This document shows, in pieces, positions 17,454-30,377 of a DNA stretch of 64,000 nucleotides. Positions within the stretch are counted from its first letter, which is position 1. Every line of letters begins with the position of its first letter. The stretch lies in assembly GCA_903868145.1 (NCBI GenBank), contig CAIPTY010000036.1:9-64008 (forward strand). Direction: 5' to 3'. The stretch comes from an uncultured Desulfuromonadales bacterium (GTDB lineage: Bacteria > Desulfobacterota > Desulfuromonadia > Geobacterales > Pseudopelobacteraceae). The notes under the pieces were generated by a model that was not told where the DNA came from, ran no database searches, and worked only from the letters and a program-made list of their open reading frames with translations. The position numbers and the translations under genes are program-made.

Positions 17454-17530
<77 letters not shown>

Positions 17531-17540
17531 AATAATTTCA

Positions 17541-17657: not shown

Positions 17658-18899
17658 ATGGCCAGTCTTAAGAAACGTGGTAAAACCTATTACGCTCAAT
17701 ACTATAACGGCACCCAGCAAGTAAGAAAAAATCTCTATACCGACAGCCTCCAGATTGCCAAGGAGAAGCTCCGGCAACTGGAATCCGCTCTATATCGTCA
17801 AGTTGATATCCCCCTTCCCACCAGGAACACCGTCGAGAAGATTGTCGGCGATTACGTTGATCACCTTTATATCGTAAAGCGCGACAAGAACGCTCAGAAG
17901 GTTATCTCATACCTGCGGGACGCTTTAGGCCCGATCTGCGACCAGCTCAAAATCAAGAAGCAAAAGGTGGCAGATAAGTCTGTCAAACGGAAGGCCGTTC
18001 ACCCGATTAATCCGATTCAATCGGTTTACTTCGAGCAGATCACTACTGAGGATATCTCACGATTCATTGCCTCGGTTGTCCGCAGTAAGGGGATCAAACC
18101 GAAGACTGCCAACCGGTACCGGGAAATCCTCACCAGGTTGTTCAACTGGGCTACCACACAGCGTGGTGTTGTGCTGCCAGGCGGAAAGAACCCTGCTGCA
18201 GCCGTTGAACGTTACAAGGAAGCTGACCCGGTGATCGTGTACCTGTCTTTGAATGAGATCGAAGAGCAACTTACCGCGCTGGCAGATGAACCACAGCTCC
18301 AGACAATGGTGGCCCTCTATATCTATACTGGCGTCCGACGGGAAGAGGCTCTATGGTTGACGACTGCCGATATTGATCTGGATGCCGGTCCCTACGGCAT
18401 GATCTATATTGTGACCAAGTCTATTGATGACAAGGACTGGCATGCCAAGACTCATAAGAAACGGGTAGTTCCCATCAGCAGCCAACTCAGAGCCTATCTG
18501 GATCGGTATACTCCGATGAAGACTGAAGAGAACTGGTTTTTCCCCTCACCTAAAGGGGCTTTCTGGGATCCTGATAACTTTTCATCGGACTTGAGGGAGT
18601 TCAACAGGAAGATGGGGTTGAAATGGTCATGTGATGAATACCGGCATACCTTCGGCAGCCAGCTGGCGAGAAAGGGGGAGAGTCTATACAAGATCTCCAA
18701 ATTGATGGGTAATTCCCCCGAGGTATGCCGGAAGCATTATGCTCACTTGGAGCCTGATGCATTGATTGACTCGGTTGAGTTTCCTGTCGAAGGTGGGAAG
18801 GCAGTATCACCCCCCCAGCCCTTGGTTTCATTATCGGCTCCCATAGCGGTACAGGAACCCGAAACGCCCAGGCTGAGGTTGGTGGTCAATAACCGGTAG
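17658..18899 (+). CDS. int: Tyrosine-type site-specific integrase
   Basis: The 413-aa protein has a SAM-like N-domain. The catalytic signature includes RREE...(R), HKKRVVPI, YRHTFGS (HxxR) and CRKHYAHL (the Tyr). It is adjacent to the tRNA att site. Confidence 0.9.
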   Translation: MASLKKRGKTYYAQYYNGTQQVRKNLYTDSLQIAKEKLRQLESALYRQVDIPLPTRNTVEKIVGDYVDHLYIVKRDKNAQKVISYLRDALGPICDQLKIKKQKVADKSVKRKAVHPINPIQSVYFEQITTEDISRFIASVVRSKGIKPKTANRYREILTRLFNWATTQRGVVLPGGKNPAAAVERYKEADPVIVYLSLNEIEEQLTALADEPQLQTMVALYIYTGVRREEALWLTTADIDLDAGPYGMIYIVTKSIDDKDWHAKTHKKRVVPISSQLRAYLDRYTPMKTEENWFFPSPKGAFWDPDNFSSDLREFNRKMGLKWSCDEYRHTFGSQLARKGESLYKISKLMGNSPEVCRKHYAHLEPDALIDSVEFPVEGGKAVSPPQPLVSLSAPIAVQEPETPRLRLVVNNR

Positions 18900-19518: not shown

Positions 19519-20076
19519 TCAGCTTTCCTTCAGATATTTATATAGCGTCTCTCTGGAACATTTGTATTCCCGCGCAACCTTTGCTTTTGGCACCCCGGCG
19601 GTAATCATCTGCCTAACCTCTTCCACCTGGGCGTTAGTCAACGACGCTTTCCTTCCTTTATAGACACCCTTCATCTTTGCGATCCGGATTCCCTCCGCCT
19701 GCCGCTCCTTCAGGATCGCCCTTTCAAATTCAGCAACCGCGCCCATGACAGAAAGCAGTAATACTGACATGGCGGCGTCATCGCCGTTGAATACGAGGTT
19801 CTCCTTGACGAAGGTTACTCTGACTCCACGGTTGGTCAGATCCTGCACCATCTGTCGCAGGTCGATGAGGTTGCGGGCAAGTCGGTCCATGGAATGCACG
19901 AACAGATGATCCCCGTCGCGGACGAAACGTAACATCTCCTGTAACTGTGGTCGGTCGGTTGACTTGCCGGAAATTTTGTCGGTGAAGATGCGATCCATTG
20001 CTAGACCGTCCAGTTGCCGTTCGGTGTTCTGATCGGCGGATGAAACTCTGATGTATCCAATTTTCTGACCATTCAT
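19519..20076 (-). CDS. Serine recombinase (resolvase/invertase family)
   Basis: It begins MNGQKIGYIRVSSADQNTERQ, which contains the catalytic Ser motif. The C-terminal HTH is AKVAREYKCSRETLYKYL. RBS AGGAGG precedes the start. Confidence 0.9.
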   Translation of the reverse strand: MNGQKIGYIRVSSADQNTERQLDGLAMDRIFTDKISGKSTDRPQLQEMLRFVRDGDHLFVHSMDRLARNLIDLRQMVQDLTNRGVRVTFVKENLVFNGDDAAMSVLLLSVMGAVAEFERAILKERQAEGIRIAKMKGVYKGRKASLTNAQVEEVRQMITAGVPKAKVAREYKCSRETLYKYLKES

Positions 20077-20235: not shown

Positions 20236-20850
20236 TCATTTTTTGAAAGTGGTCAACATTCCCTCCATCACAGTAAACATGGCCGCTGGGAGTTCTTGAA
20301 TGTTATGGATGATCCGGTGATTGTCCCAGAAGTTGCGTACCCCGGTATGCATTATCCCTATGGCCGCGATCTCTATGCCGTCCTTCGTTGTCCGGACCGT
20401 CGCTTCCTTGGTTGCCGTAGCATTATCCGGACAGCCGTCGGTGAGGATCAGCAGGATTTTTCGCGGCTCGGTGCGCTGGAGCAGCATGGCCCTGGCCGCC
20501 CAGATAGCCTTGTCCGTTGGCGTCCCGTCGAACGGGTGGTGGTTGAAATGCTCCGATTGGGGCTTTCTCCCAAAGTCGACGAGGACGTTGACTTGGGATT
20601 CCTTATTCTTGCCGCTGAACTCCATGCAGCAGATGGCTACGCCCTTCAGGCCAAACAGCGTCGTATGCAGGGCAAACGCGGCGGCGTTAGCGACCTCGTA
20701 CTTATCACCCATGCTCCCGGATAGATCGAGGAGTACGGCGACAGCTGTACTCGTATCGAATGATGGGGTTCGTGATGTGAATGTTGCAATGCCAAAAGCA
20801 ATATGAAAACTGTCTATAATAAAATGGAGCCTGTTAAAAATGGAATTCAC
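20236..20850 (-). CDS. von Willebrand factor A (VWA) domain protein, probably the 5'-truncated remnant of a larger CobT/VWA-type gene
   Basis: The MIDAS motif is LLDLSGSM, followed by GTPT and [10 protein letters not shown]. The ORF begins with a GTG that has no RBS and is preceded by AT-rich sequence. Only about 35 aa precede the VWA fold. Confidence 0.6.
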
Positions 20851-20942
20851 AAATAAAAAATCCGTTTGCGTCTTATTCTGTCGTGCCTCTGCTGTATAGT
20901 AATTCCCAGGATCATGTAAAAAATATCGGAGCTAATCGAGAT

Positions 20943-22502
20943 ATGGATATTTTCTGGAACAACGGAGAGAGGGAGACCATTCAAGGCCTTGATATCCTTG
21001 CTTTGCGTCAGCTGGATCAGCGCATCGAACAGGATTGGGTTGCGAATATCACCACCATCTCGATCAGAGCACGTTACCTGTCTCTCCTGCCATGGTTGTT
21101 TGCGGAATTTTATACATCACAACTGGCTGCCGATGGCGGGCAAGCTGTTTTTGATAGCGACCTGTTCAGACAGGCGGCAGCCCGAATGGAGTTAATCGTA
21201 CTCGCTGCGACGCGGATGGGGAAGAAATGGGGAGAGTCTGGGATTACGTACGGCGCTATCGGTTCGGAGCTCTATCATGAGGAGGTTACTGCTTTAGAAG
21301 CTAACGGGAGCCTGACATTGGTTACAGGCACACGGGGTGGCTCGGTATACGGAACCTATGTAATGCCCTGTCGCGGCTTCGGGTTGTTGAACACCACCAA
21401 TAACCCGTCGGTACCGGTCAAAGTGGAACCTAGAGGGCAAAAGCTTCATCAAGTCCGAAGAGAGATGATCCCTCCCGATGGGTTAGTACAACTCATATTG
21501 GCGGGAGGTACCCTGACGACAGACCTGCTGGAGAAAGAAGGTGTCCACTTCTCATTGAATGGTCTGAGTGCCAACCCGGAGGAGATGAGTCTGCTGCGAG
21601 AGGCCCTGATTGAACCGTATCTGGACCATTCCGAGATCAAACAGACTTATGCACGGTTCACCGAATCCGCCCAGTGGTTCCTCTCCATGAGTCAGTCCTC
21701 CACCTCCAATATGAATTCCGATGAAATTTTGAAAACAAACTTCCGCAACATCGTCACCACACCGGATCTCACCCCCTCAAAAGTAGAACTCGGTTGGGGG
21801 GAATATGAACTAAGGAGAAGAGTTCACTTTGCCCTCGAATTGTTGCTGGGGGCGTTGACTCGGACGCTCGTCGACTTGGTGGATGGGACAGTGGAAGAGG
21901 TATTGGATGAGTGGATGGGTAACTGGCAATTGCCTCCATTTTTGAATGCTCTGGTGCCTCCAAACGACAACCCGTTTGAACTCAGGCTTGCCGCTATTGT
22001 TGATCAGATCCCTGCGGATGCTTTTCTGGACCGAGGCCCGAATCGTGGTTCAGCAAGAGATCTTAGCCCAGCCCAACAAGCGGTGTATGCGTTAGCTAAC
22101 CTGATAGCGTGCCGAACCCAGTCTGCTGCCTTATGCACGGCTGGGGTGATCCCGAACAGGAATCATTACATGGAGCGGGCATTCAACATTCTGGAGGATA
22201 GCGATCGAACGGTTTACGAAAGCTTACGGGAACTACTCATCTGCACGGTGATTGAGCCCCATCTCAGAACTTCACTGCGCAAGCTTGGGCAAGGTCAGAA
22301 ATGTTCTCTCAGGTTTTTTCCCGAAGGTAATATTCTGCGCCCTACTGGTACTCTGGTGGCTGCGAGCTACAGCGGGGACCGCCTTGGTAATGTCATGGGT
22401 TTCTTTGCTGATGTCGGGTATCTGGATCGGATTGAAAGCTCACGGTTTGCCATATCAGCTGATGGCCGGACACTGCTTGAATCCTGGGAGGCTACAGCAT
22501 GA
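20943..22502 (+). CDS. Hypothetical protein (519 aa) with no recognisable motif; first gene of the PLD operon
   Basis: The track ORF is 20883-22502. I prefer ATG 20943 ([11 protein letters not shown]) because GGAG lies about 10 nt upstream. A TATAGT -10-like hexamer at 20895-20900 is downstream of the alternative GTG. Its stop TGA overlaps the ATG of the next gene (ATGA at 22499-22502). Confidence 0.7.
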
Positions 22503-25135
22503 GACGGGATATCGTGAGGCTGATCGAAGCTGAAAAAGATGTAACCAATGTCGTGGTACTGACCCACAACATTGACTTCGTGTACATCCAGTCGGTCGTG
22601 CTACCGGCGTTGCGCCGCTGCGGTCACCCTACACTGACCATATTCGCGGATGCCCAATGCGCCAGTGAAACATATCAGCACCAGCATCTGGTACTGGACT
22701 CCCTAGGCCACCGGTTCAGGGTTGTGCCGGTGGCTATGCGGCCGGGATTCCGGTTCCACCCCAAGGCGATCCTGCTCTCGGCCCAGAACAAAGGGACTCT
22801 CCTGGTGGGAAGTGGTAATCTCACCTTCGGTGGATGGCGGGAAAATGCGGAGATATGGTGCCGATACGACTCAGATAAGGACGGGACTGCCCCTTTTTCG
22901 GCATTCAGGAATTATCTCAATTCGGTTCTTTCCCTCACCCCCCTACAGGAGTCTCTCGTTGCTGAAATCGAAGAATGCTTTGAAGGCGCCAACAGACCTT
23001 GGGCGATCGATATGGATGCACCGGATCGGTTATTGGGCAGCCCCGGTACAAGTGCAGCACTGATAGATCAGATGAAAACTGCTATCGGCGATAAACCGGT
23101 CAACGATCTTCTGGTCTGCACTCCCTATTTTGATGATGCCGGGGATGCGTTGATGGCCTTATCGACAGCATTCAATACGAAAGTGAAAGTAGCGCTACAG
23201 AGCAGACACAGCGGCCTGAAGACCGAGGCTGCTAAGGCGTTAGGAGACCGTTTCGATCTGTCTACGGTTAATTTCCACCATCTTGATATCGAAAACAACC
23301 TTCGGGAAGCTTTCATTCATGCCAAGTGGTATGGATTCGAGCATGAAGATGACGTCACCGTTTTTCTGGGGAGCGCCAACTGTTCCAAGGCGGCGCTTAC
23401 GATTCCCGGAACAGCTGGCAATGCTGAACTGTTAACTGTTGTTACCCTGTCCAAAGAAGAGTTCCACGCTCAATTCGTTGCCGAACTTGAATTTGTAGAT
23501 GCGCCCCCACAGCTCACTTCCATCGCCGATACCGATCAGCCGGCTGACAACTTACTGCCATCTATTCGTATCATGGCTGCCCGCCTCGACCAAGGAGTCA
23601 TGCAAATCGCCTATACCTGTTCAGAGGGAATCAGGCTCTCAGGATTAGTCCTGCACGTTGCAGGAGGTCTTGTCGTTCCCACCGACTACACAGAGGTGGA
23701 GCCTGGCGTCCTTGTAGTACGTGGCGTGCAACCTGACAGTCGTCAAGTCTGTCTGAAGGGTCAGGCTTCCCATGGCGAAATACTTTCAAACCTCATGTGG
23801 GTTGACCACGAACAGTCTCTGAGCACTACCGCTCGCAGCAGATCGGTTGTCGATGCAGTCCGCAAGAAAGTGCAGTCGCAAGATTGGTCCATCGGAGCGT
23901 GGTCGGAAATAGCCAATGTTTTCTTCCGAAACTTGCAGTACATGCCATTACGAGCTACTGGCTCCCGTTTTACGAGCGATGGTAGCAGGAACCCCGGTGA
24001 AGCCCAGCCTGTGTACAGTGCTGGTGATGTGTTCGCAGACAGCTATGGCTTACCGTCCTTTACCAGACATCTGCCTCATGAACTGGCGAACAGTGATGAC
24101 CGGGTTACCAGCCTGCGTCAATTACTGCTGCGCTGGTTTGGCTTGAAAGATGACAGCGATCCGGACAAACCGCCAATAGACACCGTGGTGCTAAGTGGCA
24201 GCGGTGAACCGGAAGAAGAGCCGTTGCCACCGCTGGCACCAAAACCAGCCGCACCGCCCGTACCACCTGCCAGGTCCGTTACTGACAGCGATCGCAAACG
24301 CGCTCTGCAGATGCTGCAGATCATTACCGATGCCATGTCATCGCCGGAATATCTGGCCAAGCGCCAGCCAGAAACCCTCTCAGTCGATATACAGTTTGCC
24401 TCTGTTCTCTTGAGAGAAGGGCTTCACGAATCATGGATCACCGAAGCGGAGTACTTCGCAAGTACTCATAAAATATGGAGTGCTCTCTTCTTCTCTTGTG
24501 TCGCTGATGCCAAGATTGGATGGCTTGAGTACCGATACCGCAATGACGAAGACCCTGAAACTTTCGTCTCTAGGATGGCTTCACCGAAGCTCACCGCCGC
24601 ATTAGCTGCATGGGCGTTTGCCGTGCCAGATGGGGGGAATGCCCCTGAGAACGTCCGGTTCCGCCTCTCTCAAGTCTTGTCAGTGGCCCGCCTCCCATGG
24701 CTCTGGGAGCAGGCTGGTATGGAGGACGTTGCAAAGGAATTAAGAGAGCTGCTTAGTATCACGTCCGCTACATGGTCTGAAGATTTCTGGCAGTCCATCG
24801 AGACTCGCTGGAATAAATTGATACGTCAAGGATATGCTCTATGCCTTGTTGAGGAGGCCCTGGCCACGAAAACACCGGTAGAAATCAAAGGAGCGATCCA
24901 ACAGACCACTGTCAAGAAGGGGGAACTGCTCTGGCAGGGGACAGCAGGTTTTTGTATTGCAGTTCAGGATTTTTCCCGATCCAGTGGTAATGCACAAGTC
25001 CTATATCTTCAACAGGCCAGAGAAGGTGCTATCAAGGCTGAATTTGCCATCCCGCTGAAAGGGCTTGTTGAGTCGAAGATCATCTCGTTGCCAGATAAGC
25101 CGAAGGTTGTCCTTACAGAGATGTCATGCACCTGA
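22499..25135 (+). CDS. PLD-superfamily (double HKD motif) protein, putative nuclease, with a long uncharacterised C-terminal extension (878 aa)
   Basis: Motif 1 is [24 protein letters not shown] (H87 codon at 22757). Motif 2 is [24 protein letters not shown] (H274 codon at 23318). A Pro-rich linker [21 protein letters not shown] follows, then a Trp-rich C-terminal domain of about 290 aa with no motif I recognise. Confidence 0.8.
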
Positions 25136-25202: not shown

Positions 25203-25246
25203 TTGACATCCATCAATTTCCATAATATAGTTGACATGCGTCAACG
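25203..25246 (+). promoter_or_regulatory. lexA promoter with an overlapping palindromic operator (candidate LexA box)
   Basis: TTGACA (25203-25208) is followed by a 17-nt spacer and TATAGT (25226-25231). The perfect palindrome GTTGAC-ATGC-GTCAAC (25230-25245) overlaps the -10 element and the predicted +1. Confidence 0.55.
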
Positions 25247-25276
25247 TATAACGTTTGACAACTATATGGAGGATGT

Positions 25277-25879
25277 ATGTCTCAACCCACAGCGCGCCAG
25301 CAGCAGGTGCTGGATTATATCCAATCTCACATTGATAACGATGGTTACCCCCCCACCATCCGGGAGATATGCGCCCACCTTGGGGTCTCTGGGACCGTCT
25401 CCGCCATGCGGCACCTGGATGCTTTAGAGAAGAAGGGGTATATCAAGCGGGACTCCTACTCCAGGGGCATAGCCATCACCTCCCCCACAGCTGGCTCAGC
25501 CTCACTACCCATTATAGGCACCGTCCGGGCCGGGGCGCTCTCTTCGGCAGTAGAGGACATCACGGGCTATCTTTCCCTGGACCGTTTGCGCCTGCACGGT
25601 GGTAAGTTTTTACTTCGGGTGCAAGGAGACTCCATGATCAATGCCAGCATCAGCGACGGCGACCTGGCGCTGGTACGCCCGCAGCCCACAGCAAACAATC
25701 GGGACATCGTGGTTGCCATGGTAGAGGGGGAGGCAACCCTGAAACGCTACTACCGGGAAAAGGACTGTATCCGTCTTCAGCCGGAAAACCCGAACATGGC
25801 GGCCATCATCGTACCGGAGGGCTCCAGTGATGTTACCATCATCGGCAAGGTTGTGGGCATCTACCGCGATCTGGGGTAA
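25277..25879 (+). CDS. lexA: LexA-family repressor (S24 peptidase), island-borne copy
   Basis: The N-terminal winged HTH reads QQQVLDYIQSHIDNDGYPPTIREICAHLGV...LDALEKKGYIKRD. The cleavage region is VRAGAL. The Ser is in GDSM and the Lys is in ATLKRY. Confidence 0.9.
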   Translation: MSQPTARQQQVLDYIQSHIDNDGYPPTIREICAHLGVSGTVSAMRHLDALEKKGYIKRDSYSRGIAITSPTAGSASLPIIGTVRAGALSSAVEDITGYLSLDRLRLHGGKFLLRVQGDSMINASISDGDLALVRPQPTANNRDIVVAMVEGEATLKRYYREKDCIRLQPENPNMAAIIVPEGSSDVTIIGKVVGIYRDLG

Positions 25880-26300: not shown

Positions 26301-26448
26301 AATGTAGATGTGCGGTAAGAGGTAAAGGTACGGTCTGCTTCTATAGATCAGACTAAAAAATACTACCGCCATACTGCATAACTGTGTTATTTATTACAAA
26401 TTTAGTGTGCTCACTGACTATATTTCCAGCTACACTACGGAGTTTCAA

Positions 26449-27438
26449 ATGGCCAGGGCCGATATACTATTAAGTATAGTCAAGTCAGCAATCGGCAACG
26501 ACAACCTTTCTTTGCGAAAAGCTGTCGAGACGCTGGCTGCAGATGAACGCGCCAAAAATCATAGTATTCTGGCTGATCGTCTGATTGAACTGTTATCCAT
26601 GCACGGTAATCAGGTGAATAAGACAACCCCCTTCATACAAAACGGTACCAAAGATTTGGTGTATGAGATTATCCCCGAAAAAAGCTTCAGCGACCTTGTT
26701 CTTGATAAAGATGTGTTAGACATATGCCGGGAACTGATCGAGGAGCATCACCGTGCCGACCTTCTAGTATCATATGGTGTTGAGCCCCGACACCGCATTC
26801 TGTTCGCCGGTCCGCCGGGTAACGGTAAGACAACACTGGCAGAGGCCTTCGCATCGGAACTGATGTACCCGCTCATCGTGGTTCGCTATGAAAATATTAT
26901 AGGCAGTTATCTGGGTGAAACCGCCTCGAGGTTGCAGAAGGTATTTGAAACAGCTCGATCACGAAAGTGCGTTATCTTCTTGGACGAATTTGAAACCTTG
27001 GGTAAAGAGCGTGGAGATACCCGAGAGACCGGTGAGATCAAGCGAGTTGTCAGTTCCCTGCTGTTACAGATAGACCGACTCCCTTCCCATACGGTTGTCA
27101 TCACCGCAAGTAATCACCCCGAACTGCTCGACAGGGCCGTATGGCGTCGGTTCCAGGTCAAGGTTCAGCTGCCACCCCCTACCAAGGAGCAATGTATTAT
27201 CTTTATCAAAAATTTTGAAATGAGGACCGGTTTCAACTTCAAGACGGCCTACAACACGTTGGCTGATAAGTTGGCTGGTATAAGTTTTTCTGAAATTGAG
27301 GAGTTCTGTCTTGATGTTTTACGTCGTTGTATTCTGAACCATCAGCAGGACAATCCGAAAGAGATCATCAAAAGCCGGATAAAGAATCTTGAGTGCAGGT
27401 TTGTTCCTAGTAGGCGGGAGGTAGTTGATGCCGGATAG
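26449..27438 (+). CDS. AAA+ ATPase, IetA-like
   Basis: The ATG at 26449 (MARADILLSIV) follows ACGGAG. Walker A is GPPGNGKTT and Walker B is VIFLDEFE. ITASNHPELLDRAVWRRF covers the sensor-1 and Arg-finger region. It overlaps the downstream S8 peptidase gene by 11 nt. Confidence 0.85.
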   Translation: MARADILLSIVKSAIGNDNLSLRKAVETLAADERAKNHSILADRLIELLSMHGNQVNKTTPFIQNGTKDLVYEIIPEKSFSDLVLDKDVLDICRELIEEHHRADLLVSYGVEPRHRILFAGPPGNGKTTLAEAFASELMYPLIVVRYENIIGSYLGETASRLQKVFETARSRKCVIFLDEFETLGKERGDTRETGEIKRVVSSLLLQIDRLPSHTVVITASNHPELLDRAVWRRFQVKVQLPPPTKEQCIIFIKNFEMRTGFNFKTAYNTLADKLAGISFSEIEEFCLDVLRRCILNHQQDNPKEIIKSRIKNLECRFVPSRREVVDAG

Positions 27439-30178
27439 GCCCTTACTGTTATTGCCACGCTCTGCACCGCTACCAAGAGAAACTTCGCGTAGAATACCGA
27501 GAAGCAAGTTGAGATTTCCTGCAAGAGCTGAACAGGGGAATAGACTTGGTGCTCAACTTTCAACTATGCTGGATGTATATGTATCCGATTCCCCTGCTGG
27601 CACGAGCACGGAAAATATTCTGGTCATGGAGACTATCGGCAGGCCTGATAATTTTCGGACTGCTGTTGCTGCCATACCCGATCTGAAATGGCTTGCGGAA
27701 ATCGATCTGGAAAACATAGAGGCTGATGCCCGTTTCTTTGAACGCCCCAAGATAGGGGCTTTTTTCTTTAAAGGTGTGTCAGAAGGGCTAGGTACCAGAG
27801 AATCACGTGAAATTGTTGCTGCCTTCACTGCGAGTAATATCATTGATGCAGAAGGTATCCTGCGGGATGATATCTCTGCCGAAGATATCCGTGCTGTAAT
27901 CCCACATGCATACCAAGATCATGCAGACACTATCTCTGAAGCTGTTGAATCAAAGAAGAATGTGCCACTTCCCGGACGAATGTACCTGAGCCTCAGTAAC
28001 CGTCAGGCTTTGAGAGATGTAAAGTCATTATTCGACGCATGGGAAAGGGATGGGCGCCTTGAGCGAGGTGCGGGCGCATGGAGTGATATTTTTGCCCAAC
28101 TTCGTACTGTTCGTTTCTGGAATGTTAAGGACAGGGTTACTGATACTGGAATTCTTGAATATTGGCGCGAGGAAGTTGAGTGCAAGAGGGGCACTTCATC
28201 TTTGATCGCCTTTGAAGTCGAGTTCTCATATGAAGAGAACGCACTAAGCAGACGTAGTCGGCAACAACACGTTGAAGAGCTAGTGGCAGCTGAAGATGGA
28301 AGAGTTATAGCTTCGTGTGATATGAAGGAAATCCATTTTCATGCGATCAAGGTTGAGTTGCCTATCGCTTGTATCGAGCGGGTACTAGGTGAAGATTACA
28401 GTGAGCTTTTTCAAGATGGAGGTATCCTCTTTTTTCGCCCCTCCCCCCAGTGTGCGGTTGAATCGTTCGCAGAAGGTACAGAAGAAGATCTTTCATCTTC
28501 AACAGTGCCGGACGCCGCTCCAGTTGTTGCTGTTCTTGACGGTCTTCCGTTTTCTAGGCACCAACTGCTTGACGGCTTTATCATTATCGATGATCCGGAC
28601 GACGTTGCCGCTGACTATCAACCTCGGGAGATGAATCATGGCACTGCCATGCTGTCACTTATCTGCCATGGTGAACTAGATGCCAAGGAATCACCTATCA
28701 CTCGGAAGATATATGTAAGACCGATTCTGCGACCGGATAAAGAGTCTCCCCAGGACAGACGTCCGGAGAAGATTCCAAAAAATGTTTTCTTTGAAGATTT
28801 GGTCGAAAGGGCCGTGCGCAAGATGTTCACTGGTGACTCCGGTGAAGCCCCTTCAGCTCCGACAGTGAAGATCATCAGCCTATCTGTTGCTGATCCGGAC
28901 CGAATGTTTCACCAGTTCCCTGGTCCGACTGCTAGACTGCTGGACTGGCTGTCCTTCAAATACAAGGTGCTTTTTTGTGTCAGTGCTGGAAATATTAAGG
29001 AATCAGTTAAATTAGGAGTCGAGCCGGATGAGTTTTCCGCTAGATCCAGTGATGAGCAAGTTTCTTCCGTCTTGTCGGTGTTGTATGAGAACAGGAGAAA
29101 CCGCAGAATACTAGCACCTTCAGAATCAATCAATTCTATAACCGTAGGTGCCCTGCATGATGACGCTTCGACTCCCGTTATTCTTGATGGTTGCCTTGAT
29201 ATTTTACCATCTTCGGATCTTCCCTCACCACTTTCCCCGTTCGGGCATGGATTCCGCTCCTCTATAAAACCCGAGATTCTTGTTCCCGGCGGCCGCCAAC
29301 TCTTTACTCACGTGGGTGCTGGAGAATACGCCCTTCACAGACTCCAGGCACGCTCGGGGCAAAAGGTCGCTTCAGTACCGGTAAGACTTGGTGATAGGAC
29401 GCGTACTGTCTACACATGCGGCACCAGCAATGCCAATGCACTCGCTGTGCGCGGTGCTGCTTTTATCCATGATGCTGTTTTGGACGTCCTTGAAAAGCAG
29501 GGGTTGGAAAGCTACGATAGTTCAATCGCCGCTTTGATCAAAGCTTTGCTGGTTCATAGTGCTTCTTGGGGTGAGGCTGCGGATATTATCGAAAATGTGC
29601 TTATGAGCGGGAAACACTCGACGGAAGTAAAAAAAGTGATTGCCCGTTGCCTTGGTTATGGTCGACCTGATTTTGCCAAGTCGATCGAGTGTTCAACAAC
29701 AAGGGCGACGGCTATCGGCTACGGCCTCATTGCTAAGGATAAGCGGCACGAGTACAGGTTACCTTTACCCCCGAGTCTAAGTGGATTGGATTGTTGGCGA
29801 AAATTGACCATTACACTAGCGTGGCTAACGCCCATAAGTGTTGATAATCGCAAGTATCGCAAGGCGGCTCTGGGGTTTGAGGCTACGGATGCTGCTACGG
29901 CTGTTGGAGGTAAGAGAGCAGAAGCTCAGCACCAGCAAGTAAGAAACGGAACCTTACAGCATGAAATTATTGAGGGTGCGGATGTGCGCGCATTTTATGA
30001 AGGTGAATGTCTGATGATCCCTGTCCAGTGCCGAGAAGATGCAGGGACATTAGACGTTGAAGTGCCATATGGTTTAGCGGTTTCTCTGGAGGTCAAGGAG
30101 GAAGTTGGAATTGATCTGTATGAGGAGATCCAGAACATGATTGAGGTTTCCGTTAGAGAAGCTGTCAGGGCTGGATAA
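27428..30178 (+). CDS. S8 (subtilisin-like) serine peptidase with a ~360-aa uncharacterised N-terminal region, IetS-like
   Basis: The catalytic triad motifs are VAVLDGLPF (Asp), NHGTAMLSL (His) and CGTSNANALAVRG (Ser). The ATG is at 27428; a TTG at 27425 is also possible. Confidence 0.85.
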   Translation: MPDRPLLLLPRSAPLPRETSRRIPRSKLRFPARAEQGNRLGAQLSTMLDVYVSDSPAGTSTENILVMETIGRPDNFRTAVAAIPDLKWLAEIDLENIEADARFFERPKIGAFFFKGVSEGLGTRESREIVAAFTASNIIDAEGILRDDISAEDIRAVIPHAYQDHADTISEAVESKKNVPLPGRMYLSLSNRQALRDVKSLFDAWERDGRLERGAGAWSDIFAQLRTVRFWNVKDRVTDTGILEYWREEVECKRGTSSLIAFEVEFSYEENALSRRSRQQHVEELVAAEDGRVIASCDMKEIHFHAIKVELPIACIERVLGEDYSELFQDGGILFFRPSPQCAVESFAEGTEEDLSSSTVPDAAPVVAVLDGLPFSRHQLLDGFIIIDDPDDVAADYQPREMNHGTAMLSLICHGELDAKESPITRKIYVRPILRPDKESPQDRRPEKIPKNVFFEDLVERAVRKMFTGDSGEAPSAPTVKIISLSVADPDRMFHQFPGPTARLLDWLSFKYKVLFCVSAGNIKESVKLGVEPDEFSARSSDEQVSSVLSVLYENRRNRRILAPSESINSITVGALHDDASTPVILDGCLDILPSSDLPSPLSPFGHGFRSSIKPEILVPGGRQLFTHVGAGEYALHRLQARSGQKVASVPVRLGDRTRTVYTCGTSNANALAVRGAAFIHDAVLDVLEKQGLESYDSSIAALIKALLVHSASWGEAADIIENVLMSGKHSTEVKKVIARCLGYGRPDFAKSIECSTTRATAIGYGLIAKDKRHEYRLPLPPSLSGLDCWRKLTITLAWLTPISVDNRKYRKAALGFEATDAATAVGGKRAEAQHQQVRNGTLQHEIIEGADVRAFYEGECLMIPVQCREDAGTLDVEVPYGLAVSLEVKEEVGIDLYEEIQNMIEVSVREAVRAG

Positions 30179-30321: not shown

Positions 30322-30367
30322 GCTCATAACCCGAAGGTCATAGGTTCAAATCCTATCCCCGCAACCA
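30322..30367. repeat. attR: displaced 3' half of tRNA-fMet (not an intact tRNA)
   Basis: The sequence is GCTCATAACCCGAAGGTCATAGGTTCAAATCCTATCCCCGCAACCA. The upstream sequence (gcgcagggtatgaattcagac) cannot form the acceptor or D arms. The two differences from attL are a compensatory pair in the T-stem (G:C changed to T:A). Confidence 0.8.
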
Positions 30368-30377
30368 AAAAAATCTG

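Follow-up and report, generated by a model that had tools for sequence, protein, structure and literature searches.

A mobile two-gene cassette encoding a double-HKD PLD-family protein and its partner, interpreted as related to the Azaca core but lacking its helicase

Two adjacent genes, hereafter A and B, were analyzed in a 64,000-nucleotide (nt) stretch of DNA from an uncultured Desulfuromonadales bacterium (GenBank assembly GCA_903868145.1, contig CAIPTY010000036.1, positions 9 to 64,008 of the forward strand), referred to as the window. An earlier reading made from the letters alone (the sequence-only reading) had singled out this pair as a candidate for an undescribed defence system. The comparative data presented here reveal a strictly paired, mobile unit and relate its products remotely to ZacA and ZacB of Azaca (ZacA-ZacB-ZacC), a system reportedly described by Millman et al. 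in 2022. The features of the pair, all on the + strand of the window, are the following.

20943-22502, +, gene A, encoding the partner protein of 519 amino acids (open reading frame and translation)
22499-25135, +, gene B, encoding a single-chain double-HKD protein of the phospholipase D (PLD) family with long C-terminal extensions, 878 amino acids
22486-22502, +, coupling signals: Shine-Dalgarno sequence GGGAGG and ATGA stop/start overlap
20943-21272, +, N-terminal module of A, residues 1-110: ZacA-like region with the motif GLDILxLRQLDQ... and Trp5
22314-22496, +, C-terminal alpha/beta module of A, residues 458-518, winged-helix-like (model and conservation)
22499-23503, +, two-lobed PLD catalytic domain of B, residues 1-335 (Foldseek, hhalign)
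22757-22819, +, HKD motif 1 of B, H87-P-K89 ... G104-S-G-N107 (sequence)
23318-23380, +, HKD motif 2 of B, H274-A-K276 ... G291-S-A-N294 (sequence)
23561-24136, +, beta-sandwich (residues 355-430) and helical segment (438-546) of B (DSSP on the model)
24155-24262, +, Pro-rich disordered linker of B, residues 553-588
24284-25132, +, C-terminal Trp-rich helical domain (residues 596-800) and small beta-barrel (803-850) of B

The TGA of A (22500-22502) and the ATG of B (22499-22501) share the tetranucleotide ATGA (22499-22502), and 7 nt before this ATG, within the end of gene A, is the GGGAGG sequence (22486-22491). The open reading frame of A was originally listed from position 20883, an in-frame GTG upstream of the ATG at 20943. 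Because homologues begin at the methionine of the latter (consensus MxxFWNSGER), 20883 is merely a mechanical start. Translational coupling of the two genes, proposed in the sequence-only reading, is borne out both by this overlap and by the strict co-conservation described below.

Conservation and mobility of the A-B pair

A scan of one genome per species yielded 71 loci. Conservation statistics refer to 47 independent loci, and pairing geometry to 46 intact pairs, which represent at least 12 phyla. At 90% identity, homologues of full length and matching size formed at least 580 clusters for A and at least 656 for B; with hundreds of such homologues per protein, the pair is not a chance arrangement of open reading frames. 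When the A family served as the profile in an exhaustive search, 816 clusters (at 50% identity) passed E ≤ 1e-3 and 207 of these reached E ≤ 1e-30; all of the 150 best matches listed belonged to the close family. The closest relatives were found in Thermodesulfobacteriota (67% identity in Geobacter, 63% in Geomonas). Other hosts included Acidobacteriota, Myxococcota (Sorangium cellulosum), Alpha-, Beta- and Gammaproteobacteria, Campylobacterota, Chloroflexota, Gemmatimonadota, Planctomycetota, Latescibacterota and Bacillota, among others, with Sulfurimonas among the genera represented. The pair is real and widespread but uncommon. No match to the locus was obtained by megablast in 5,426 complete E. 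coli genomes, and viral data contained the pair in three IMG/VR contigs and in no GenBank phage.

Wherever a locus had a full-length A and sufficient downstream room, a full-length B lay 3' of it in the same orientation, so that B followed A in 46 of 46 intact loci; co-occurrence of the homologues as neighbours was the check that the sequence-only reading had asked for. Start and stop codons overlapped in 38 of these 46 pairs, mostly by 4 nt, and the remaining ones were separated by gaps of no more than 6 nt. Pairwise identities of A and B were tightly correlated (r = 0.96), a value reached by none of 999 Mantel permutations. No third gene was conserved, the commonest neighbour family being present in 6 of about 57 loci.

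Two metagenomic contigs of otherwise unrelated DNA have in common a 5.2-kb segment with 99.4% identity, spanning from about 170 nt 5' of A to about 770 nt 3' of B. The shared segment and the pairing, with no conserved third gene, indicate that the pair moves as a discrete cassette. In these two loci (L084, 8830-14004; L085, 8829-14004) the segment comprises only the A-B pair and a downstream open reading frame of 80 codons, and the unrelated surroundings are rich in transposases and resolvases.

Decay products were also found. In L057, L067, L069 and L071, A was reduced to a lone N-terminal fragment, and the nearest 10 kb contained no B; B was truncated in L013 and L030; and the pair of L063 was split by a 2.6-kb insertion. 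That decayed copies are common suggests frequent loss of the module. Such loss would fit a costly module, as expected if the pair acted by abortive infection, A holding an indiscriminate PLD nuclease (or phosphodiesterase) B inactive until an infection cue releases it to destroy the nucleic acids of host and phage alike. The tight coupling of the two genes, with the non-enzymatic partner first, agrees with this toxin-like arrangement, as does the lack of a methyltransferase or other self-marking gene conserved nearby, and a nuclease restrained by its partner is described for Hachiman (PMC12278908). However, ZacA of the nearest characterized relative is needed for cleavage and does not act as an inhibitor; typical antitoxins are unlike A, which is large (519 residues) and conserved to the same degree as B; and no solitary intact A or B gene was seen among the loci. 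On balance, abortive infection is possible, though we regard it as somewhat unlikely.

The two-gene layout extends beyond the close family. A tblastn search of plasmids with the PLD domain of B retrieved 27 records with 23-29% identity. In seven of seven records inspected, from Myroides, Sphingopyxis, Polaromonas, Streptomyces, Miltoncostaea, Prevotella and the haloarchaeon Halorussus, an unannotated protein of 495-629 amino acids overlapped the start of a PLD-type protein of 791-889 amino acids. By hhalign, the upstream protein of the Polaromonas plasmid aligned with the A family over its full length (probability 96%, E 1.6e-9), and the PLD domain of this plasmid aligned with residues 17-325 of B (probability 99%). 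When the half of B that follows the PLD domain was compared with the corresponding region of plasmid relatives, the probability was 37%, and homology between the clades was not shown for this half. Homologues retrieved with the seven distant A-like proteins as seeds were all unannotated and devoid of Pfam domains.

Predicted architecture of proteins A and B

The AlphaFold2 model of A (mean predicted local distance difference test score, pLDDT, 90; predicted template modelling score 0.89) is mostly alpha-helical, with a strand/helix module at the C-terminus. In profile searches A had no Pfam match at E ≤ 1 and no NCBIfam family, in agreement with the earlier claim that it carries no recognizable motif, and Foldseek searches of PDB and BFVD yielded no structural match for its model (E > 0.1 throughout; template modelling score, TM, about 0.1). 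A confident model without a structural match in these databases makes A a good target for structure determination. It is possible that A represents a new sensor of nucleic acids or of infection.

Conservation in A is concentrated at both ends. The N-terminal 110 residues are the best-conserved part of the protein (49% mean pairwise identity), and the C-terminal 60 residues reach 46%. Residues 1-20 (20943-21002) were modelled with a pLDDT of only about 50, yet W5 is invariant in 47 of 47 loci, and this tryptophan recurs as P-x-W in the distant plasmid and archaeal relatives. The peptide around W5 is a candidate docking peptide. At the other end, residues 458-518 are modelled as a strand-strand-helix-strand-strand-helix module. 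The winged-helix family HTH_45 of Pfam was matched by 4 of the 47 members (best E 2.3e-4), and the segment PRL...L.D..L....T..G of the A C-terminus is kept in the distant plasmid relatives. This winged-helix-like module is a candidate for the DNA-binding part of A.

Protein B matched Pfam PLDc_2 (PF13091) with 43.2 bits, above the cutoff of 27, in two stretches. Its AlphaFold2 model had a pLDDT of 83.6 overall and of about 90 over residues 1-335. Both HxK...GSxN motifs were found with exactly the residues and spacing given in the sequence-only reading, and their H, K, G, S and N residues are invariant in 47 of 47 independent loci. The canonical Asp position of HxK(x)4D is never occupied by Asp in these loci, being S, A, T or G at residue 94 and variable at residue 281. 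Judged from this conservation, the PLD site of B looks catalytically intact.

In Foldseek comparisons with PDB, the two-lobed PLD part of B matched TDP1 (E about 1e-7) and the C-terminal domains of PPK1 (E 4.5e-8) over roughly 400 columns, and also vaccinia F13 and PssA, the range of E being 5e-8 to 1e-5. Single lobes matched SauUSI (E 1.7e-4), the R protein of NgoAVII (E 9e-4) and NucT. When all PDB sequences were searched with profiles of the two families, no PLD protein was matched by sequence. The kinship of B with PLD nucleases, as earlier suggested, is upheld by the two-HKD fold and by the nearest profile matches, which are nuclease-type defence PLDs.

The occurrence of PssA and F13 among the structural matches, in a superfamily that includes phospholipases and phospholipid synthases, raises the alternative that B is directed at lipids, either as a membrane-damaging effector or as a phospholipid-modifying enzyme, with A as its regulator. 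Several observations run counter to it. All profile matches of B above noise are nuclease-type PLDs, A contains a winged-helix-like module, and the models of A and B consist of soluble globular domains. In addition, the Pfam search of both proteins gave no transmembrane or lipid-binding family, no dedicated predictor of signal peptides or transmembrane segments having been run. A lipid substrate is therefore considered very improbable.

The first PLD lobe is the most conserved region of B (51% mean identity), and the domains beyond the PLD part are the least (23-30%). Among the latter, the beta-sandwich and the helical segment form the most variable folded part, with 23-28% mean identity; the beta-sandwich region gave weak Foldseek matches to immunoglobulin- and fibronectin type III-like folds (E about 6e-3). 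The Pro-rich linker noted in the sequence-only reading corresponds to the disordered stretch of residues 553-588 (pLDDT < 50; 18% mean identity), and the Trp-rich C-terminus, noted as well, contains six invariant tryptophans (W646, W660, W705, W736, W771 and W812). The C-terminal part was modelled with a pLDDT of 82-92. It had no Pfam match, and its helical domain was absent from the 50 best Foldseek matches listed. The sole hint from the profile search of PDB sequences was a marginal one, to the Hfq/Sm-like protein 3hfn (E 0.017, residues 775-834). Within the beta-barrel (residues 804-850; 24908-25048), W812, Q813 and R827 are near-invariant. This small barrel may be a nucleic-acid-binding knob, and the C-terminal domain as a whole is a candidate target-recognition module. 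The variability of the post-PLD domains would match the pattern expected for recognition of evolving targets.

Genomic setting of the pair

In the window, the pair lies in a 12.8-kb island at a tRNA-Met gene, delimited by 51-nt direct repeats with 94% identity. The features that frame it or share it are the following.

17454-17530, +, tRNA-Met(CAT), at the attL side of the island
17485-17535, +, attL, left copy of the 51-nt direct repeat, repeating the 3' half of the tRNA
30322-30372, +, attR, right copy of the repeat, 94% identical to the left one; end of the island
17658-18899, +, tyrosine integrase of the island (Pfam Phage_integrase, E 4.9e-16)
26407-30178, IetA/IetS (Gao_Iet), AAA+ ATPase and subtilase (PADLOC, E 3e-140 and 6e-279)

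The island contains the integrase, a resolvase, a remnant of a VWA-domain gene, the A-B pair, a LexA-like gene and the genes of IetA and IetS, and aroC, aroK and aroB lie beyond attR. The setting outlined in the sequence-only reading, an integrase-bounded island with recombinases, gene remnants and an IetAS-like module, was confirmed, together with the 51-nt repeats at tRNA-Met. IetAS constitutes a system separate from the pair, and neither IetA nor IetS accompanies the pair in other loci. No helicase is encoded within the att-bounded island, the sole NTPase being IetA of IetAS.

Two further genes of the island were noted. Between the pair and IetAS, a gene at 25203-25879 encodes a LexA-like repressor of 200 amino acids (LexA_DNA_bind and Peptidase_S24) and is preceded by a near-consensus sigma-70 promoter, TTGACA-17-TATAGT, with 11 of 12 matches. 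This repressor may exert SOS-type control over part of the island; its gene is not a companion of the pair in other loci. Directly 5' of gene A, a truncated VWA/CobT_C-like open reading frame of 203 codons (20236-20850) adjoins the serine resolvase (19519-20076), both on the - strand. It looks like a remnant of another island module.

Across loci, the neighbours of the pair vary and are mostly immune genes. IetAS stands beside it in the window and BREX in the Geomonas propionica locus, and in L002 a complete DISARM system with its own DrmC lies immediately 5' of the pair. Other loci carry SIR2, a PLD-helicase-DUF3427 protein, UvrD, or a PLD-SNF2 helicase with a type IIG methyltransferase, and a sample of ten nearest neighbours included HsdR, Type ISP, an Eco57I-type methylase, PIF1, UvrD-PDDEXK and an SMC-like ATPase. 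When PADLOC was run on 104 nearest neighbours, without a control set, many different defence families were represented: 367 models were matched, none of them in more than three proteins. Defence genes thus surround the pair both in the window and elsewhere, as the sequence-only reading had surmised from the window.

Some of these associations recur. Type I restriction-modification genes adjoin the close-family pairs of L008, L038, L041 and L043, and a distant pair of L074, on the Myroides odoratimimus plasmid pFM-G13 (4385-8502), is inserted into an operon of this type, between hsdS and hsdR and on their strand. Other plasmid copies are near genes for AbiEii, NACHT and Sir2 proteins. A DrmD-like PLD-SNF2 helicase and a type IIG/Eco57I-type methyltransferase are encoded directly beside the pair in L010/L088 (1700-8677), L020 (2868-9850) and L036 (692-7977). 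Neighbours of this kind or a full DISARM system are found at roughly a tenth of the loci, and this adjacency may reflect either a functional association or the mere clustering of genes in defence islands.

The same surroundings bear on another explanation, namely that the pair serves not immunity but the processing or maintenance of DNA of mobile elements, for instance through a TDP1-like phosphodiesterase, guided by A, that resolves covalent adducts of DNA with relaxase, recombinase or topoisomerase. Islands with integrase and resolvase genes carry the pair, and some plasmid copies adjoin TraG or replication-relaxation genes and UvrD/Top zinc-finger genes. In addition, TDP1 is among the best full-domain structural matches of B, and both motifs of B lack the Asp, as do the HKN motifs of TDP1. 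Nevertheless, the TM to TDP1 is only about 0.5 and the root-mean-square deviation 6-8 Å, as expected for any two-lobed PLD protein, and profile matches favour defence nucleases. Moreover, the neighbours are overwhelmingly restriction or defence genes with no fixed class of mobile-element gene, and one and the same cassette is present in unrelated elements. These observations make a role in DNA processing improbable.

Proposed function and relation to named systems

ZacB was the top PADLOC match of B, both for the protein of the window (E 2.4e-17) and for 50 of 50 homologues (best E 1.2e-20). The match was confined to the PLD core, at profile positions 98-344 of 586, leaving the remaining 550 residues of B without a counterpart. 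ZacA was the only recurrent PADLOC match of A (40 of the 47 members at E ≤ 1; best E 2.2e-5), and it was also matched by three of three distant plasmid relatives (E 1.5e-5, 6.6e-4 and 8.4e-4). In each case it was the N-terminal module that matched, against profile positions 25-116 of 396. The SF2 helicase ZacC was absent from the island and from about 57 related loci. In Azaca, three genes encode a DUF6361 protein, a PLD nuclease and a superfamily 2 (SF2) helicase, and cleavage of T4 phage DNA in vitro needs ZacA, ZacB, ZacC and the Walker A motif of ZacC; ZacA is required for cleavage, and mutations of its conserved residues had no effect in vitro (bioRxiv 10.1101/2025.07.10.664194).

The pair is not a member of Azaca, since it has no helicase, no DUF6361 and longer proteins with partial profile matches. 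From these remote matches, it is read as related to the ZacA-ZacB part of Azaca, without the helicase. The presence of ZacA- and ZacB-like signals without ZacC, in an island with gene remnants such as the VWA fragment, would also be expected if the locus were a decayed Azaca that has lost ZacC and is now non-functional. That is hardly tenable and is refuted by the comparative data: 46 intact pairs occur in at least 12 phyla without a conserved third gene, both open reading frames are full length with invariant catalytic residues, and both proteins far exceed the Zac profiles in length (519 versus 396 and 878 versus 586 positions).

We propose, with a probability of about one half, that the pair is an autonomous, horizontally mobile anti-phage or anti-plasmid module that shares ancestry with ZacA-ZacB and works without ZacC. 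A and B would be made in fixed proportion through translational coupling and would form a complex, in which A and the fast-evolving post-PLD domains of B would recognize foreign DNA by a base modification or a DNA structure. The double-HKD site of B would then cut the DNA by a metal- and ATP-independent reaction with a covalent phospho-histidine intermediate, a chemistry that is established for Nuc, BfiI and similar nucleases of the PLD family. The complex, the recognition role of A and the nuclease activity of B are all inferred. Since the pair is not accompanied by a methyltransferase, the most economical guess is that modified bases or DNA structure are recognized; this guess gains plausibility from the preference of Azaca for T4 DNA and from the END nucleases and SauUSI, which follow a logic of PLD plus sensor.

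A number of points weigh against this proposal. The defence role is one that we infer from context and remote homology only, and PLD-superfamily enzymes act on many phosphodiesters. Since cleavage by Azaca needs ZacC and its Walker A motif, activity of a helicase-less relative is an assumption. The link to ZacA is weak for the A protein of the window itself (E 0.038 over 27 residues, 37-63), which has no match to Pfam DUF6361 (PF19888), a family matched by 1 of 47 members with E 0.1. The best whole-domain structural matches of B are PPK1 and TDP1, not endonucleases. Finally, the pair is almost absent from viral collections, and some plasmid copies are near transfer or replication genes.

A different immune role may be envisaged from the Asp-less motifs and the single-chain two-lobed fold, in which B would be a TDP1-like phosphodiesterase, not an endonuclease, that is guided by A to attack or resolve covalent protein-DNA linkages of invaders. 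Its targets could be phage terminal proteins, relaxase-DNA or topoisomerase-DNA adducts. Such a role is quite improbable; if true, it would amount to an immune principle not yet described. A milder version, in which the A-B pair is a self-sufficient, ATP-independent ancestral core and Azaca arose by recruiting a helicase, is more likely. Should the proposed module protect its hosts, it would be a compact two-gene immune module needing no ATPase, ranging from Geobacter to Sorangium, Sulfurimonas and Planctomycetes, with the distant layout on plasmids of Actinomycetota, Bacteroidota and a haloarchaeon. New candidates for defence cassettes are many; this one is clean and compact.

The pair was also compared with other named systems. 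PDC-M27B was the second PADLOC match of B (E 2.8e-10 for the window; 50 of 50 members, best E 1.8e-14), and weaker profile matches, like this one to the HKD regions, were obtained for DrmC (10 of 50), PbeA (5 of 50) and DpdK (E 0.16). Assignment to PDC-M27 was rejected: the PDC-M27B match is weaker than that of ZacB, and A matches no PDC-M27 model, PDC-M27A included. PDC-M27C-like proteins were present in only 2 of the 104 nearest neighbours. DISARM was likewise rejected. The island has no DrmA, DrmB (DUF1998) or methyltransferase, and no such partner is conserved with the pair; the NCBIfam DrmC model scored 17.6 against a cutoff of 133. The sequence-only reading had already set DISARM aside for lack of DrmA and DrmB. 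In L002, the adjacency of a complete DISARM system with a DrmC of its own indicates that the pair is a separate unit.

PLD restriction enzymes (BfiI, NgoAVII, SauUSI and the END nucleases) resemble B in having an N-terminal PLD fold followed by variable, presumptive recognition domains, and the pair has no cognate methyltransferase, as in the type IV-like members of this group. In modification-dependent enzymes, N-terminal PLD nuclease domains are combined with variable C-terminal sensor domains (PMC12191111). Known sensor domains (B3-like barrel, iEndoIII, EVE and SRA) were not detected in B with Pfam or Foldseek. Restriction enzymes of this group carry one HKD motif per chain and dimerize, whereas both motifs of B share a single chain. 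They lack an obligatory ZacA-like partner, and SauUSI has a helicase motor. TDP1 resembles B in that one chain forms both lobes of the PLD fold and its two HxK motifs are devoid of Asp. However, the identity is 12-14% at a TM of about 0.5, and TDP1 is a eukaryotic repair enzyme without partner or C-terminal extensions. This likeness by itself justifies no functional inference for B.

No paper naming such a two-gene system was found in the literature searched, which was incomplete. The earlier statement that the pair cannot be assigned to any named system stands insofar as no library assigns it at family thresholds, and has to be amended insofar as a remote kinship with ZacA-ZacB is detectable. 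This kinship makes a helicase-less relative of a known system a better description than one unrelated to all known systems. Like Azaca, the pair joins a two-HKD PLD protein of the nuclease type to a non-enzymatic protein encoded directly upstream, and it is located in defence islands. It differs from Azaca in lacking ZacC, which is needed for cleavage by the latter, in the size of A (519 residues against the 396 positions of the ZacA profile) and of B (878 against the 586 of ZacB), and in the beta-sandwich, helical and barrel domains added to B. With only ZacA-like and ZacB-like parts, the pair isolates that partnership from the helicase and thereby bears on the role of ZacA.

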